Notes: generated from the sequence alone by a model not told the origin. A DNA stretch of 64,000 nt from a virus (IMGVR_UViG_2974679032_000001:1-64000); one strand, 5' to 3'; positions 35,919-61,668 are shown, counted from the stretch's first letter. Made by a program: numbers and translations.

Positions 35919-36302
35919 GTGGCCGAGGGCATCAGCACCTATCTAGCGAACAAGCTGCTGGATCACGTCTGCCGTGGCGTGGCCTACACGCCGCCGACGA
36001 CGGTCTACTTCCAGGCCCATGTCGGCGCGCCCGGCGCGGCGATGACGGCCAACATCGCCACCAACACCGCTCGGGTGGCTGTGCCGTTCGGCGCGGCGTC
36101 CGGCGGCGGGATCAACCTCTCCGGCGCTCCCGAGCACACCCTGGGCGGCGCGAACACGATCACCCACGGCTCGTTCTGGGACGCCGCCAGCGGCGGCAAT
36201 CCGCTCTGGTCGGCAGCTGCCTCGGTCGCCAAGGGCGGCGTGGCGGGCGACATCATCCGCGTGAGCACCGCAGCTCTCAGCCTCGGCCCGCTGGCCAGTT
36301 AG
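35919..36302 (+). CDS. tail fiber-associated minor tail protein
   Basis: LANKLLDHV.RG.AYTPPTTVY, WDAASGGN motifs. Confidence 0.75.
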   Translation: MAEGISTYLANKLLDHVCRGVAYTPPTTVYFQAHVGAPGAAMTANIATNTARVAVPFGAASGGGINLSGAPEHTLGGANTITHGSFWDAASGGNPLWSAAASVAKGGVAGDIIRVSTAALSLGPLAS

Positions 36303-36312
36303 GATCGCGCTC

Positions 36313-36672
36313 ATGGCCTCCTACGACTACGCCCTCGGTTTCGACGCCTGGACCGGCCCCGCCGAGAAGCTCCCGGCTCAGCCGATGGAGCCGCTCCCGC
36401 CCGGCCCCGATGCGACCACCGACGCCCAGGACCGCCACGTTCGCGCGCTGGCCGATCACACCGACGCCAAGCGCAAGTACGAGGCCGAGCTGCGCGCCCT
36501 GACCAAGGACGACGGCAACTGGAGCGAGCAGCGCACGCCGCTGGGGCGCAACAAGGACGAGGCCCTGGAGAAGGTCAAGGAGTTCGACGCGCTCCACGCG
36601 ACCAACCCGCTGGTGCGCAACGTGGGCCTCTACCGGACCCCCGTCGTGAAGTGGGAGCAGGTTCCCTACTAG
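36313..36672 (+). CDS. hypothetical protein
   Basis: TAGGAT-7nt-ATG; GC3-rich. Confidence 0.7.
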   Translation: MASYDYALGFDAWTGPAEKLPAQPMEPLPPGPDATTDAQDRHVRALADHTDAKRKYEAELRALTKDDGNWSEQRTPLGRNKDEALEKVKEFDALHATNPLVRNVGLYRTPVVKWEQVPY

Positions 36673-56989: not shown

Positions 56990-57387
56990 CGCGGGCCGGG
57001 AGCCGCGCCGGAGCCAGCGTGGGGCGCGCACGGCCAGGGCGCGATCAACACCCCGCCGAGGTCGTAGCACCCGGCTGGCTTGCCCTCGGGGTTGTTCGGG
57101 CCGCAGACCCGGTTGCCGTCATCCACGCACGACCAGCCCGGCTCGTCCTCCTCGCTCGGCCCGAGCATGAGGTCGCTCAGGCTCTTGGGCTGCCAGCTCG
57201 GGGCCGGGTGGGTGAGCGCGCTGGCCAGCACCAGCGGATCGACCGAGGTGCCCTGGCTGGGCGCGCTGGCGGCGGGGATGGCCGGGGGCAGCTTGTCCGG
57301 CGTGATCATCGCGCCGACGGGGATGCCGACGGCGAGGCCGATGAACAGGCCGGTGGCTCCGGCGATATGGCGGGCGTCGATTCTCAT
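56986..57387 (-). CDS. membrane-anchored protein with EEDEPGWSC..DGNRVCG motif
   Basis: AGGAGG RBS; N-terminal TM. Confidence 0.7.
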   Translation of the reverse strand: MRIDARHIAGATGLFIGLAVGIPVGAMITPDKLPPAIPAASAPSQGTSVDPLVLASALTHPAPSWQPKSLSDLMLGPSEEDEPGWSCVDDGNRVCGPNNPEGKPAGCYDLGGVLIAPWPCAPHAGSGAAPGPR

Positions 57388-57467
57388 GGATTCCTCCTGG
57401 TAGTCCCGGCGGGGCTATCCCGTCGCGGGTTAGTTCGGTTATATCAGCCGAGCCTAGCGCAGCGCAC

Positions 57468-57788
57468 TCAATTCCCCGAGTTCGTCTGGGAAGTGCCGCA
57501 CCGCATCGTCTGGCGCTCGCCACGGCTGGCCATCCGCTGGCCCCGGTCGGCGCGGTACATGGCCTCCACAGCCGCCGCGATCCTGGGCGGGAGGCTGGCG
57601 CGCAGCGGTGCGTAGGCCCCGCGCTGGGTCAGCTCGTCGGCGATGGCCGAGATGCCGCCGTAATGCCGGTGGGCCTGGGCGGGGTTAGCCACCACGAACC
57701 CGAGGGTGAAGATCAGGGTGGCGGTGGGCACGTCGGCGATGGGGGTATTGCCGGGGTCCGCCTGGGCGGCGGGGAGGTTGTGGGTCAT
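57468..57788 (-). CDS. hypothetical protein
   Basis: First leftward gene after the promoter at 57846-57875. Confidence 0.65.
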   Translation of the reverse strand: MTHNLPAAQADPGNTPIADVPTATLIFTLGFVVANPAQAHRHYGGISAIADELTQRGAYAPLRASLPPRIAAAVEAMYRADRGQRMASRGERQTMRCGTSQTNSGN

Positions 57789-57831
57789 GCGCGGAGAGCC
57801 TACTCCTGCCCGACTTGGGAGGGCACCGGCT

Positions 57832-57845
57832 CGCGCGCGCGCGCG
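57832..57845. repeat. (CG)7 tract
   Basis: Directly visible. Confidence 0.9.
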
Positions 57846-57875
57846 ATTTTAGCAGACTCGCCCCGAGATGGTCAA
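57846..57875 (-). promoter_or_regulatory. strong SigA-like leftward promoter P1
   Basis: TTGACC-N18-TAAAAT with extended -10 TGc. Confidence 0.8.
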
Positions 57876-57998
57876 TATGATCTTCATCATGTTTGTGGAT
57901 TAGGTTGATAGGTATAGGCTCGCCGTGCTTCGCCAGTTAGCGAGGCGAGCGACTCCCTAAATCTTCCCCTTGCTTGGCGCTATCGCTGGCGCTATCCT

Positions 57999-58018
57999 CG
58001 CGCGCGCGCGCGCGCGCG
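57999..58018. repeat. (CG)10 tract
   Basis: Directly visible. Confidence 0.9.
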
Positions 58019-58136
58019 GGCGAGGCCATGAGCACGTCGAGCGCCAGGGCCTCGATAGCGGGACAGTGCTCGCCCCTTCCAGGCTCGCCCTCCCGGCATC
58101 AGTGCCAGCGCGGGTTAGCTAGGTTAGGATCGCCGG

Positions 58137-58889
58137 ATGACCACAACCAAGGGCCGCAAGGCCACCCGCAAGGCTCCAGAAGATGCCCGCGACGAGACGC
58201 TGGCTCAGTTCGCCAAGATGGTCGATGACCACCACGGCTCGGCGGTCGGGTTCGACCGGCTCGTCAAGGAGCTGGCCCGCGCCCGCGCCCAGATCGCTCA
58301 GGTCAAGGCTGCGCGCGACGAGGTGTTCAGCGTCGTCAAGGCCAGGTTCGAGGAGGGCCACCGGATCGCTGGCCCTGGCGTGGAGCTGCGGCTCACTGCC
58401 GCTGGCGAGGCCAAGATCGAGCGCGCCGTAGAGAGCGCGGCGGTGAAGAAGCACAACCCGGCGGCGTGGCGGCGGGCGCAAGCCGATGTCCCATACGTCC
58501 AGGTGAAGGCCCCGGCGGCGGCGAAGCTGGCCATCGAGCTGATCCCGACGCCGACGGTCAACGAGGACTGGCCGGTGGAGAAGGCGGTGGAGGTGTATCA
58601 GCACGATCCCGCCTGGGTCCGGCTCAAGGAGCTGCGCGAGATCGAGGAGGAGACCCTCGCCAAGCTCGACAAGCTCGCCGCCGACTTCGGCTGGGACGGC
58701 CACCCCATCACGTTCTCCGATGGCTGGTCAATTGGCTTGCGCCGCAAGCAATTCAGCGCGGCTAAGCTCGCCGAGCTGGAGCCGGAGGTGTTCGAGGCGC
58801 TGGCTGTGAGCAAGGTGAGGCAGGCGACACCCCGCGTGTATGTGGCCTCTACCAGCGCCGATGGTGCCACCGACGCCATCGCTGACTAA
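58137..58889 (+). CDS. uncharacterised two-repeat protein, paralog A1
   Basis: Aligns with 59396..60172 (DETLA.F, PYVQVK, GWDG.P.TF.DGW..GLRRK). Confidence 0.8.
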   Translation: MTTTKGRKATRKAPEDARDETLAQFAKMVDDHHGSAVGFDRLVKELARARAQIAQVKAARDEVFSVVKARFEEGHRIAGPGVELRLTAAGEAKIERAVESAAVKKHNPAAWRRAQADVPYVQVKAPAAAKLAIELIPTPTVNEDWPVEKAVEVYQHDPAWVRLKELREIEEETLAKLDKLAADFGWDGHPITFSDGWSIGLRRKQFSAAKLAELEPEVFEALAVSKVRQATPRVYVASTSADGATDAIAD

Positions 58890-58910
58890 CCCAGGGTTAG
58901 GATGCTAACC
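58886..58910. promoter_or_regulatory. putative RHH operator over a leaderless promoter
   Basis: CTAACC-cag-GGTTAG-gatg-CTAACC containing the TAGGAT -10, 7 nt before ATG. Confidence 0.6.
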
Positions 58911-59153
58911 ATGAGCCTCCCCCGCGTCATCCGCCCGAGCGGCGCTCATGCGCCCGAGCCGCCCATCCTGGTGCCCATCAAGATGCGCCCTGACCTGCGG
59001 CGACGGTTCCGCGTGCGCGCCGTCCAGGCCGACATGACCTACGCCCAGCTCATCGAGCACTGGCTCGACGCCGAGGACCGGCGCGAGGCCAGGGCGGCGG
59101 CGCGCCAGGCCCATCCGCTCCATCGCCCAGCGCCCGAGGCGGCGACATCGTGA
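58911..59153 (+). CDS. ribbon-helix-helix DNA-binding protein, paralog R1
   Basis: LVPIKMRPDLRRRFRVRAVQADMTYAQLIEHWLD. Confidence 0.75.
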   Translation: MSLPRVIRPSGAHAPEPPILVPIKMRPDLRRRFRVRAVQADMTYAQLIEHWLDAEDRREARAAARQAHPLHRPAPEAATS

Positions 59154-59173
59154 ACCCGATGCACCCGCCCGCG

Positions 59174-59203
59174 ATTTTAGCAGACTCGCCCCTGACAAGT
59201 CAA
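59174..59203 (-). promoter_or_regulatory. strong SigA-like leftward promoter P2
   Basis: TTGACT-N18-TAAAAT with extended -10; 23-bp identity with P1. Confidence 0.75.
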
Positions 59204-59395
59204 ATGTTGATTTCCTTGACGGGGAGGTTAGGATCGGCCTCATCCAGGCCGACCTAATCCGGCTCCGCCTGCCTCCCACGATGAGATGGTCGAGGACATC
59301 ACCAACGGCGAAGATAATGGGATCAGGCGCGCCCGAAACTCGCGCGCCTCCCGGCATCAGTGCCTCCGGTAGGGTTAGCGAGCTATCCTGGCCGG

Positions 59396-60172
59396 ATGAC
59401 CACGACCAAGCGCAAGGGCGTAGGCCCTACCAAGAAGGCTCGCCGAGCCACCGAGACCGTCTACGACGAGACGCTGGCTGAGTTCAGCCGCGCGCTCGAT
59501 TCCCACCTCCATCGCCCCGCCGGGTTCGCCGAGGCGGTGCTGGAGCTGCACCGGATCAGGCGCACCAGAGCGATCCTGCGGGAGCGGCGGAGCGAGATAT
59601 TCAGCAGGCTGCGAGAGCACGCCGAGCGCGGCAACACGTTCGTCAGGATCAGCGACACCGAGGCGTATGAGCTGCGGCGCACCACCCCGGCTGCGCAGAC
59701 GGTGACCAAGACGGTGACGAGCGCGGCGGCGGTGAAGGCGGGCGCTGGCCTCTGGGAGGCGGCGAGGGTGATCACCCCATACGTCCAGGTCAAGTCGCCG
59801 GTTGGGGCCGTGCCTGATCTCCCGCTCCCGGCGATGCCAGAGGTGCCGCCCTCGGGCGTGAGCCTGGCCGGGGCGGTGGCGGCGTATCGCTCGGTGCCCA
59901 AGGACGCGGAGCTGCGGAACCAGGAGGAGGAGATCATCACCGCCCTGGAGAAGATCGCCGCCGACGCCGGGTGGGATGGCGAGCCGGTCACGTTCGGCGA
60001 TGGCTGGGTGGTCGGCCTGCGGCGCAAGGAGTACAGCTCCGACCAGCTCAAGGCCAACGATCCGGCCGCGTGGGATGCGCTGGCCACCCCGGTGATCAAG
60101 GGCGGGCACTCTCGGCTCTACCTGGCCAAGGTCAACGCGGCCGGGGAGGCGTCCGAGGAGTGGGCTGACTGA
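59396..60172 (+). CDS. uncharacterised two-repeat protein, paralog A2
   Basis: TATCCT-6nt-ATG, MTTTKRKG; paralog of 58137..58889. Confidence 0.8.
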   Translation: MTTTKRKGVGPTKKARRATETVYDETLAEFSRALDSHLHRPAGFAEAVLELHRIRRTRAILRERRSEIFSRLREHAERGNTFVRISDTEAYELRRTTPAAQTVTKTVTSAAAVKAGAGLWEAARVITPYVQVKSPVGAVPDLPLPAMPEVPPSGVSLAGAVAAYRSVPKDAELRNQEEEIITALEKIAADAGWDGEPVTFGDGWVVGLRRKEYSSDQLKANDPAAWDALATPVIKGGHSRLYLAKVNAAGEASEEWAD

Positions 60173-60188
60173 GGTTATATTTGTAATC

Positions 60189-60422
60189 ATGGCTAACCCA
60201 TCCCGCCCCGCGCGCGGCACCGTGGTGATCGGCTCGACGGCCACACCGACGGTGCTGCTCCCCGTCAAAGTGCCGCCTGACCTGCGGCAACGCTTCAAGG
60301 TCGCAGCTGCCGAGGAGGGCACCACCTACGCGGGCCTGATCGAGCTGTGGCTGGATGAGCGTGACCGCAAGCGCCAGCGAGCGGCGGCGCGCCAGGCCCA
60401 TCCACTCCACCAGCCCGCGTGA
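60189..60422 (+). CDS. ribbon-helix-helix DNA-binding protein, paralog R2
   Basis: LLPVKVPPDLRQRFKVAAAEEGTTYAGLIELWLD; shares AAARQAHPLH with R1. Confidence 0.75.
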   Translation: MANPSRPARGTVVIGSTATPTVLLPVKVPPDLRQRFKVAAAEEGTTYAGLIELWLDERDRKRQRAAARQAHPLHQPA

Positions 60423-60598
60423 ACGCGCCCGCTCGCTTCACATGGAAGGGCCTGCCCGTCGAGTGCGGTCAAGGCTGTGGCGCTCATGGCGTGCCGGTGG
60501 CCACCGAGGACGGCTGGCGGCTGCCGGTCCACTCGATGCAGCTGCCGACCGGCGAGCGCGTCCACTGCCCTGGATCGCTGCGGGCGGTCGAGCCGTGA
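60419..60598 (+). CDS. 59-aa putative Zn-binding protein (not in ORF track)
   Basis: GTG; CGQGC..H..CPGS; overlaps at both ends. Confidence 0.55.
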   Translation: MNAPARFTWKGLPVECGQGCGAHGVPVATEDGWRLPVHSMQLPTGERVHCPGSLRAVEP

Positions 60599-60810
60599 TG
60601 GGTATCCAGGAGATGCACGACGACGAGGTGCGCGCCCGGCTGGGCCTTGCTCCGGTGGATCGCCCGGCCACCATCGAGGAGCGCATCGAGGCCAACATGG
60701 TGCGGGCGATGCCCGAGCCTTACGACGTGGAGGACCATCCGAGATGCACATGTCGCGACTCCGACGTGGGCTGGATGGATTGCCCGGTCCACCCCGAGCC
60801 GTGCCGATAG
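60598..60810 (+). CDS. hypothetical protein (CTC..CPVH)
   Basis: ATG overlapping the upstream stop. Confidence 0.6.
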   Translation: MGIQEMHDDEVRARLGLAPVDRPATIEERIEANMVRAMPEPYDVEDHPRCTCRDSDVGWMDCPVHPEPCR

Positions 60811-60817
60811 GAGGCCG

Positions 60818-60961
60818 ATGGACATCCCCGAGGGCCTGAGCGCCCCAGCCGAGCGGCTCCACCGCGCGCTGCTCGCCGCTGAGCGGTGCTCGACTGAGTA
60901 CCAGCAATACGCCGACGCCGCCGCGGTGCGCGCAGCTCAAGAGCTTCTGGAGGCCCAGTGA
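60818..60961 (+). CDS. hypothetical protein
   Basis: AGGAGG RBS; MDIPEGLS. Confidence 0.6.
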   Translation: MDIPEGLSAPAERLHRALLAAERCSTEYQQYADAAAVRAAQELLEAQ

Positions 60962-61668
60962 CCGCCGCGATGGCCGAGCCGCCCGACGACATGGACGGCC
61001 AGCTCTCCGAGATGCTCAAGAGCGAGCTGATCGAGCGCCGAGCCAAGGTGATGTTTCTGCGCAACGCCGGGGCCACCTGGCAGGCCATCGCCAAGGAGTG
61101 CGGGGTCAGCGAGGCGACGTGCCGCAAGGACTACCAGGTGGTCTGCCGCGACATCAACAACGAGCAGCCCGCCAACATCGTGGCGCGGCACCGCGCGGTC
61201 ATCTTCGACATCCAGCGCGCCAACTACGCGGCGATGATGAAGGGCAACGTCAAGGCGGCGACGGTGATCCTGCGCGCGCTGGATCGAGAGTCCCGCCTGC
61301 TCGGCCTCGATGCGCCCACGCGCATCCTGGCCGGGGTATCCGACGTGGAGTTCGCCAACGAGGCGGCTCGCCTGATCGAACGCATCCAGTCCCTCGACCC
61401 CACAACCCTCAAGGAGCTAGAACGTGGCCACTCCATCATCGACGCCGAGGCCGATTTCGTCCGTGACGAGCCAAACCAGTCACCTGACCGCGAGCCTGCG
61501 CCTGGCGCTGGACAAGCTCAGTCGGATGGGCCTACGCCCGAGCCGGGGCCGGGGCCTGATGCCGCCGACAGCTCCCGAGCCGACGCGGCCGGGCACGCCG
61601 GAGAGCCTCAAGCGCGCGCTGGCGACCCCGAGCCAGACGACGACGACGATGACTGGTCCAACATCTGA
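60958..61668 (+). CDS. HTH DNA-binding protein (terminase small subunit-like)
   Basis: ERRAKVMFLRNAGATWQAIAKECGVS..RLLGLDAP; acidic tail. Confidence 0.7.
   Translation: MTAAMAEPPDDMDGQLSEMLKSELIERRAKVMFLRNAGATWQAIAKECGVSEATCRKDYQVVCRDINNEQPANIVARHRAVIFDIQRANYAAMMKGNVKAATVILRALDRESRLLGLDAPTRILAGVSDVEFANEAARLIERIQSLDPTTLKELERGHSIIDAEADFVRDEPNQSPDREPAPGAGQAQSDGPTPEPGPGPDAADSSRADAAGHAGEPQARAGDPEPDDDDDDWSNI

Follow-up and report, generated by a model that had tools for sequence, protein, structure and literature searches.

Two adjoining units at positions 57842-60422 of the virus record IMGVR_UViG_2974679032_000001 represent, with a probability of roughly 0.7, the divergent early switch of a Cluster-B-type mycobacteriophage in two heterologous versions that were brought together head to tail by recombination. 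The window analysed here comprises bases 1-64000 of this 72,217-bp record, which is rated complete. Unit 1 extends from 57842 to 59169 and unit 2 from 59170 to 60422, and each of them contains an identical 23-mer, a non-coding spacer, a common junction, a gene for a protein designated A and a gene for a ribbon-helix-helix (RHH) protein designated R. An earlier note on this DNA had listed two units with the identical 23-mer, the junction, a 250-aa A paralog and an RHH gene, and our repeat and protein comparisons confirmed this inventory (250 aa for A1, 258 aa for A2).

In both DNA and protein searches the nearest records were the Mycobacterium phages PenguinLover67 and Quesadilla of the Bclasvirinae, and judged by its sequence the phage is a mycobacteriophage of the Cluster B type. 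To the left of the units the genes of PenguinLover67 run leftward and encode DNA polymerase, primase/helicase, helicase and exonuclease, while the right-hand genes run rightward, so that the units sit exactly on the divergent transcription switch. The common layout, a leftward replication operon separated by an intergenic region from a rightward A gene that is followed by an RHH gene, is annotated in all five records that were opened (PenguinLover67, Quesadilla, Funsized, Sour and Mariokart, two of which are Gordonia phages); A is labelled there as 'hypothetical protein' and R as 'ribbon-helix-helix DNA binding domain protein'. The synteny of intergenic region, A and RHH gene persists in Gordonia Sourvirus phages despite an identity of A of only 25-29%. 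With regard to gene order, the region studied here agrees with the divergent early regions of Cluster B (PenguinLover67 gp61|gp62-gp63, Quesadilla gp64|gp65-gp66 and Gordonia phage Sour gp60|gp61-gp62), and it also shares with them an equally placed leftward promoter and a GGTTAG-type -10 element just before the ATG of A. In contrast to these regions, the cassette is doubled here and present as two alleles (38% identity for A, 62% for R), an orphan leftward promoter (promoter 2) faces unit 1, and a counterpart of PenguinLover67 gp64 is missing. The suggestion of an undescribed system was not supported, as the layout is standard, has been sequenced and annotated, and about 300 phage records contain a match to A.

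The two units have different closest relatives. Unit 1 is overall about 89% identical to PenguinLover67; by segment, the identity amounts to 74% for the first leftward gene, 79% for the 23-mer, 95% for the first 60 nt of spacer 1, 89% for A1 and 90% for R1, compared with a backbone identity of 87-90% to the left and 79% to the right. Apart from the 3' end of A and from R, where similarity is weak, unit 2 has no counterpart in PenguinLover67. Its best match, as well as that of the DNA to the left of 23-mer copy 1, is Quesadilla with 72-75% identity, and the unit 2 spacer aligns with the intergenic region between Quesadilla gp64 and gp65 at 71% identity. In the comparison with these relatives, the unit 1 lineage gives way to that of unit 2 at 59154-59169. 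Unit 2 takes the place of the 35-codon gene gp64 of PenguinLover67, and PenguinLover67-like sequence is back at 60448. Since the units are closer to different relatives than to each other, they are divergent alleles of two lineages and not mutual copies. Of the description 'tandem-duplicated' the side-by-side position of two units is therefore correct, while their origin as copies of one another is not. A true tandem duplication was rejected: A1 is 87.8% identical to PenguinLover67 gp62 versus 38% to A2, the spacers resemble each other at background level, and the units share only 32 nt (91% identity). This 32-nt repeat (57833-57864 and 59161-59192) consists of the 23-mer and about 9 GC-rich bases to its left and is the only DNA that is truly doubled between the units.

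Doubling of the cassette was not seen in any other record examined. We found one place per phage record for A in 300 of 300 records when A1 was used as the query and in 293 of 293 with A2, and a single A followed by a single R at all 15 loci from IMG/VR. Seven further loci, from two Gordonia phages and five metagenome contigs (two of the five are the same contigs as IMG/VR loci), likewise carry one A each, accompanied by R in six cases. Doubling could nevertheless occur in close kin too.

The arrangement is proposed to have arisen when a phage resembling PenguinLover67 recombined with a distantly Quesadilla-like one, with one exchange at the promoter core, at the right end of the 23-mer, and one illegitimate join 7 nt past the stop codon of R1. 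Of the promoter DNA, exchange and join together would have doubled no more than about 32 nt, and the 35-codon gene located next to R in PenguinLover67 would have been replaced. Mosaic phage genomes arise by illegitimate or short-homology recombination, and the region resembles them in that its identity to two relatives changes abruptly where genes end and at short conserved sequences, and in that A alleles are swapped among the relatives. It differs from them in that both alleles are retained in tandem and neither has replaced the other.

In the mechanism that we propose, each unit would carry a strong sigma-A/sigma70-type leftward promoter core and an inter-promoter region with a stem-loop conserved in the family. 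A rightward promoter, with its -10 element 6 nt before the ATG of A, would yield a leaderless mRNA for A, which in the structural model is a pseudo-dimeric alpha/beta protein. A second promoter of the same kind would lie ahead of R, a very basic RHH DNA-binding protein, and R would repress or tune the early promoters by way of GGTTAG/CTAACC half-sites that overlap the -10 elements. Both A-R pairs are proposed to be functional. Leftward promoter 2 would transcribe antisense through R1 and A1 and may in addition contribute to transcription of the replication operon.

The 23-mer provides the spacer and the TG-extended -10 element of a sigma70-type leftward promoter in both units. It was found at exactly two sites, copy 1 at 57842-57864 and copy 2 at 59170-59192, with 0 mismatches and no further occurrence in the 72,217-bp record, and a repeat of this kind was obtained in none of 100 shuffles of the window. 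We defined sigma70-type promoters by -35 and -10 hexamers at a spacing of 16-18 nt, and this applies to both leftward copies. Copy 1 (57846-57875, minus strand, TTGACC-18-TAAAAT) faces the replication operon, copy 2 (59174-59203, minus strand, TTGACT-18-TAAAAT) is directed antisense into R1 and A1. Both match 10 of 12 consensus positions and carry TG before the -10 element, and they are the only sites in the window that reach at least 10/12; the strong leftward promoter of the earlier note is thus well founded. PenguinLover67 and Quesadilla have a homologous leftward promoter at the same place, spelled with different letters. Besides the 23-mer, the 18-mer CCTCCCGGCATCAGTGCC was found at exactly two sites of the window, starting at 58089 (58089-58106, plus strand, some 30 nt ahead of the start of A1) and at 59347 (59347-59364, plus strand), and the repeat search also recovered the junction repeat GCCGGATGACCAC.

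As leftward promoter 2 lacks a leftward gene and is aimed at R1 and A1, antisense RNA over unit 1 is to be expected. An open reading frame (ORF) of 41 codons at 59039-59164 on the minus strand, antisense to R1, opens with GTG about 3 nt downstream of the expected start of this transcript; it is probably not a gene. Directly downstream of the leftward -10 element lie alternating purine-pyrimidine GC tracts, runs of (CG)n or CGTG/CACG of about 20-60 nt. The repeat search located a (CG)n tract downstream of leftward promoter copy 1 (57829-57846) and a second tract at 57996-58025. Such tracts occur at the same place in most of the related intergenic regions that were printed (L003, L007-L009, L011-L013 and L015-L019), where the leftward transcript is expected to start, and the tract is nearly lost at the recombination join of unit 2. 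Alternating GC tracts are prone to form Z-DNA.

On the rightward side, all four genes start without a Shine-Dalgarno sequence and are preceded by a -10-like hexamer, located 6 nt ahead of the ATG of A (TAGGAT for A1, TATCCT for A2) and 7 nt ahead of the ATG of R (TAGGAT for R1, TATATT for R2). A motif scan yielded the following candidate leaderless promoters, all on the plus strand: GGTTAG-cta-GGTTAGGAT, 6 nt and ATG for A1 (58113-58136); GGTTAGC ... TATCCT, 6 nt and ATG for A2 (59373-59395); and GGTTATATT, 7 nt and ATG for R2 (60173-60188). The A1-R1 junction (58886-58910) holds three CTAACC/GGTTAG half-sites, with GGTTAGGAT 7 nt ahead of the ATG of R1. The pattern GGTTANNNT-N6/7-RTG is present three times in the window, precisely at the starts of A1, R1 and R2, and the window's ten GGTTAG sites are confined to 57428-60193. 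Each of the 15 IMG/VR relatives has GGTTAG no more than 310 nt ahead of the mapped position of A, the common form of the element upstream of A being GGTTAGNGT-N7-ATGACCAC; GGTTAT stands 13-17 nt ahead of the R start in 12 of the 15, often as the palindrome GGTTATACATATAACC.

Leaderless mycobacterial promoters have a -10 element TANNNT about 6-8 nt before an ATG or GTG codon, whose first base is the transcript start. The placement of TAGGAT, TATCCT and TATATT 6-7 nt before the starts of A1, R1, A2 and R2 corresponds to this arrangement; what sets the local elements apart is a preceding GGT (GGTTANNNT). By analogy, this suggests that the elements ahead of the start codons are promoters from which transcription sets in directly at the start codon, and that the A mRNA is leaderless. 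With the hexamer 6 nt from the ATG, the spacer would probably be outside the A mRNA, which speaks against the spacer as leader RNA of A.

Two similar elements were observed outside the units. The sole TTAGGAT elsewhere in the window, at 36299, lies 7 nt ahead of the ATG of an ORF at 36313-36672, in overlap with the stop codon of the ORF before it, and may represent a further promoter of the leaderless type within the rightward late genes. A motif of about 30 nt, GGGTTAGTTCGGTTATATCAGCCGAGCCT, is located at 57425-57455 on the plus strand, just past the stop codon of the DUF7423 gene, and includes GGTTAG as well as TATATC. It is conserved in Quesadilla and, in altered form, in one metagenomic relative (motifs of this type lie about 664 nt upstream of A in L006 and about 850 nt in L020), and may be a further rightward promoter-like element.

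The R proteins belong to a known family. R1 (58911-59153, plus strand, 80 aa, with an alternative ATG at 58902) and R2 (60189-60422, plus strand, 77 aa) both match PF23807 (RHH_10), with E values of 3.9e-29 and 1.5e-29 and scores of 101.2 and 102.5 bits at a cut-off of 27. They are 62% identical to each other over 58 residues, and R1 shows about 90% nucleotide identity to PenguinLover67 gp63. R is strongly basic (pI 10-11), and the family profile weakly matches the strand-helix-helix core of the solved RHH proteins SvtR (2kel, E 0.0018) and ParG (1p94, E 0.019). Arc, Mnt and CopG are further transcription regulators with a ribbon-helix-helix fold. From the sequence we infer that R binds the GGTTAG/CTAACC half-sites overlapping the promoters of A and R. 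Here, as with SvtR of SIRV1 and ParG, short inverted or direct half-sites overlap promoters near the regulator gene. A feature missing from the aligned part of the solved relatives is a C-terminal motif Q-x-H-P-L/F-H-x-P that follows the RHH core in all 16 aligned R proteins, with Q, P, H and P invariant (59106-59132 and 60393-60419 in the window); it could be a docking or partner-binding peptide or a metal-binding site.

The spacers between 23-mer and 18-mer measure 224 nt in unit 1 and 154 nt in unit 2. Between the leftward -35 element and the A start they show 56% identity at a background of 0.58 +/- 0.05, and are thus unrelated in sequence, as had been noted earlier. The accompanying statement that they are highly self-complementary applies to one of the two: the unit 2 spacer folds with a z-score of -3.0 and was equalled by 0 of 200 shuffles, while the value for unit 1 (z -1.5, 16 of 200 shuffles as good) is not significant. 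Much of the self-complementarity of unit 1 comes from its (CG)n tracts, which are trivially self-complementary.

Comparison with the relatives revealed a conserved order of elements. Related intergenic regions begin with the start of the leftward gene, the alternating GC tract and the leftward promoter, continue with two TTGAC-like hexamers and a TAGGNT hexamer, and then show a GC-rich stem-loop with TAGGNT in its 5' arm, further hairpins and finally the GGTTAG element with the A start. Folding and covariation place the stem-loop, or inverted repeat, of unit 1 at 57903-57967 (5' arm with TAGGCT; alone not thermodynamically significant) and that of unit 2 at 59220-59267 (5' arm with GGTTAGGAT at 59226-59234; homologous to a Quesadilla hairpin). 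When 18 related intergenic regions were each folded alone and anchored at TAGGNT, the stem-loop was found to be kept by covariation. At each of the positions -6 to +11, 13-18 of the 18 sequences form a pair, except at the T (11/18) and the A (7/18) of the hexamer, and most stem positions show several pair types (at position -3, GC 7, CG 7, TA 2, AT 1 and TG 1), in a pair table that is fitted to each sequence's own fold and hence biased towards structure by construction. An unselected control with fixed 110-nt regions gave z <= -2.4 in 8 of 18 cases and z > -0.6 in 5 of 18 (unit 1 -0.94, unit 2 -2.47). When the hairpin segments were aligned with MAFFT, the variable loops misaligned the 3' arms and RNAalifold predicted no pairs; a four-sequence alignment of the hairpins was misaligned likewise. 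The comparison agrees with the earlier description of conserved flanks around a variable structured core, and the presence of the stem-loop across the relatives makes it a family feature that is nothing special to the doubling. A different element was observed in seven relatives (L007-L009, L011-L013 and L016), a near-perfect palindrome CCTACT(C/T)(C/T)(G/T)GAGTA(G/A)G located some 100-150 nt ahead of A and preceded by a TTCTTC-rich run; neither of the units described here has this palindrome.

Protein A was assigned to phrog_996 over its full length: A1 (58137-58889, plus strand, 250 aa, the PenguinLover67-type allele) with E 2.6e-73 and A2 (59396-60172, plus strand, 258 aa, an orphan allele) with E 1.2e-65, covering positions 5-241 and 3-243, respectively, of the 248 positions of the profile. 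A1 and A2 share 38% identity (E 4e-47). The best non-self identity of A2 is 42% among 5.8 billion proteins, and at most 41% among the phage records, while relatives of A1 fall into 103 clusters at the 50% identity level (E <= 0.001). A is near neutral, with a median pI of 6.6; at about this pI a role as DNA mimic was rejected. A2 and R2 retain the invariant residues of their families, and all four ORFs are intact.

An AlphaFold model of A1, based on a 96-sequence alignment, reached a pLDDT of 94.9 and a pTM of 0.87. It consists of two similar halves, each made up of a short helix, a helix of 25-34 residues and a small sheet into which two short helices are inserted. The profiles of the N- and C-terminal halves match each other with a probability of 72% (E 3.3e-5, 76 columns), and the secondary-structure pattern of the model repeats as well. 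The two-fold internal repeat of A, already suspected in the earlier note, is therefore moderately supported by profile and model. Neither A1 nor A2 matched a Pfam family, and among 96 scanned members of the A family no family matched more than one member. Searches for known structures gave no meaningful match of the A-family profile to PDB sequences (best E 1.5) and 0 Foldseek matches of the A1 model to the PDB at E <= 0.001 (best E 0.29); against BFVD there were 9 matches at E <= 0.001, of which the named ones are all uncharacterised phage proteins. Structural neighbours in the ESM Atlas, at a TM score of about 0.5, have an A-like part beside a YqaJ or T5orf172 nuclease domain, and the YqaJ case (TM 0.53) agrees with the resemblance recorded previously, at the level of a lead. 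Feature scores in the ESM Atlas were likewise at lead level (<= 0.87) and included clusters in which a minority of members carry DUF7173 or Phage_Mu_Gam; the Pfam models Phage_Mu_Gam and Sipho_Gp157 had no match at E <= 10 in the phage's own record. No longer, fused relatives of A were found, which is weak evidence. PADLOC and NCBIfam returned nothing significant for A1, A2, R1 or R2.

Regarding function, the order of A and then R beside a long divergent intergenic region, kept even in the Gordonia Sourvirus phages, points to a core early function. Our tentative best guess is that this function is associated with DNA. Among Rosebush genes, 44, 70 and 75 are listed as toxic, and the passages concerned contain no mention of homologues of A or R (PMC7474061). 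More speculatively, and at present doubtful, A could be a fast-swapping early protein with a new fold that takes part in conflict between phage and host or between phages (counter-defence, takeover or exclusion), in which case the doubling would stack two specificities. Each specificity would then come with its own promoters and RHH regulator, and leftward promoter 2 would additionally place the first pair under antisense control. The position of A as the first early gene, the single-gene swaps of A (28% identity beside 98% for R, see below) and the lack of any relative of A2 above 42% identity fit such a role.

We further asked of the relatives how closely spacer, A and R are tied to one another. 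Spacer identity and A identity correlate loosely over 19 units (r 0.47). Quesadilla combines a spacer of the unit 2 type (71% identity to spacer 2) with an A of the A1 type (65% identity to A1, 40% to A2). Loci L017 and L019 are 98% identical in R and 76% in the spacer but only 28% in A (L017:3456-4220 and L019:3492-4253), so that A was exchanged as a single gene between fixed flanks, and such an exchange argues against a specific interface between A and the spacer or between A and R. The sequences suggest that A alleles can replace one another or experience diversifying pressure. The independent recombination of spacer, A and R stands against cognate spacer-protein pairs, the interpretation favoured in the earlier note.

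These data bear on several other explanations of the region. It might be read as two origin-initiator modules, in which the spacer is an origin activated by divergent transcription and built of the stem-loop, an AT-rich stretch and the (CG)n tracts, and A is a sequence-specific initiator, the two sets being heterospecific. The neighbourhood of the replication operon, the covariation of the stem-loop in 18 intergenic regions, the synteny that extends to the Gordonia Sourvirus phages and, as a lead, the nuclease-domain neighbours in the ESM Atlas speak for such modules. We consider them improbable all the same, as spacer and A are not inherited together in Quesadilla or in L017/L019, A matches no initiator family and has a pI of about 6.6, the GGTTAG sites are linked to promoters at -10 elements, and the GC skew has no turning point at the units. 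Nor were iterons found (at least three direct repeats), the repeat search having returned only the (CG)n tracts and the unit-to-unit repeats; iteron origins share with the region the repeated short motifs in nearby non-coding DNA. The spacers could instead be transcribed as structured leaders or small RNAs, each bound by its own A in an autoregulatory or takeover ribonucleoprotein. For this one may cite the folding of the unit 2 spacer, better than in all 200 shuffles, the compensatory changes in the stem-loop, and a promoter-like TTGATT-16-TAGGAT upstream in unit 2 that could start a leader. The hexamer 6 nt before the ATG of A, present in both units and in the relatives, predicts an mRNA without the spacer, however, and the outer stem pairs lie upstream of the expected start of any transcript from TAGGNT. 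Neither strand is consistently favoured when top- and bottom-strand folding energies are compared, Rfam gave 0 matches at E <= 1 for 57300-60700 on both strands, and spacer and A are decoupled in the relatives, all of which renders an RNA function of this kind very unlikely.

Still less likely are toxin-antitoxin (TA) like pairs, two addiction or exclusion modules with A as the toxin and R as RHH antitoxin and autorepressor. RHH proteins are frequent as antitoxins, A and R are neighbours throughout the verified loci, the invariant C-terminal motif of R could bind a partner, and a small RHH gene by a larger gene is familiar from type II TA systems. A has no match to toxin or defence proteins in Pfam, PADLOC or NCBIfam, though, nor any analogue among solved structures, and unlike in type II TA systems A and R have apparently separate promoter-like elements and do not co-evolve; they follow in the order A then R with gaps of 12-21 nt. 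About 300 phage records carry A once and at roughly the same place in the genome, a uniformity unlike that of an accessory TA module, and R at 98% identity alongside A at 28% in L017/L019 is hard to square with a tight cognate interface. A partition system was rejected as well, there being no ATPase gene. The proposals of a TA, partition or origin system in the earlier note accordingly found no support in toxin, defence, partition or initiator families or in iterons. Finally, the doubling itself could be an assembly artefact, in which two co-occurring strain variants were strung in tandem via the shared 23-mer. The arrangement is unique among the relatives examined, and an identical short repeat opens both units, as in a mis-resolved assembly bubble. 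Against this, the join consisting of the R1 stop, 7 nt, GCACC... and the 23-mer was not seen in opened relatives and would need real reads, both flanks are collinear with the relatives, and all four ORFs are intact. The length of the record (72.2 kb versus 67-71.6 kb in related records) also fits a real extra 1.3 kb, and we hold an artefact to be hardly probable.

Several points weigh against a recombinant, doubled early switch as we describe it. Its promoters and start sites all derive from matches to consensus sequences. The identical 23-mers could also be explained by gene conversion, selection or assembly error. The conserved stem-loop has no role in the model; its 5' arm overlaps the -10-like hexamer TAGGNT, and it may act as DNA or as RNA. 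GGTTAG may be a promoter element only and not an operator of R, and its scarcity elsewhere may in part reflect avoidance of TTA and TAG in the coding DNA of a genome with 69% G+C, which the dinucleotide shuffles used for the motif statistics ignore.

The units are flanked on the left by the first gene of the leftward replication operon (57468-57788, minus strand), which encodes a DUF7423 protein (PF24198, E 2.4e-29); it is 74% identical to PenguinLover67 at the nucleotide level and has its best coverage in Quesadilla, at 75% identity. On the right follows a gene for a small Cys-rich protein (60419-60598, plus strand, phrog_9223), inside which, at 60448, the PenguinLover67-like sequence restarts. 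Further to the right, a 236-aa protein (60958-61668) matches phrog_645 ('Rnase E') and is annotated as RNaseE in relatives. Pfam detects in it only a helix-turn-helix at the N-terminus (HTH_23, E 1.8e-5), which is followed by an acidic low-complexity tail, and the RNase E label looks doubtful.

Taken as a system, the region is unremarkable: an early switch of the standard type found in a well-sampled phage group, probably doubled through recombination. Literature searches found no paper on the region, on PenguinLover67, on Quesadilla or on early transcription in Cluster B, and neither the candidate early promoters nor the inter-promoter stem-loop is mentioned in the papers that were found. Across the Cluster B phages, the comparison defines these candidate early promoters (GGTTANNNT 6-7 nt before a start codon) together with a covarying stem-loop. 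Protein A emerges as an exchangeable allele with a wide occurrence (about 300 phage records, 103 sequence clusters) and a confidently predicted fold that has no solved analogue. The two units apparently provide a natural case of unequal recombination in which both alleles of a regulatory cassette were retained, and the orphan strong promoter that faces the first pair offers a natural setting for antisense interference.

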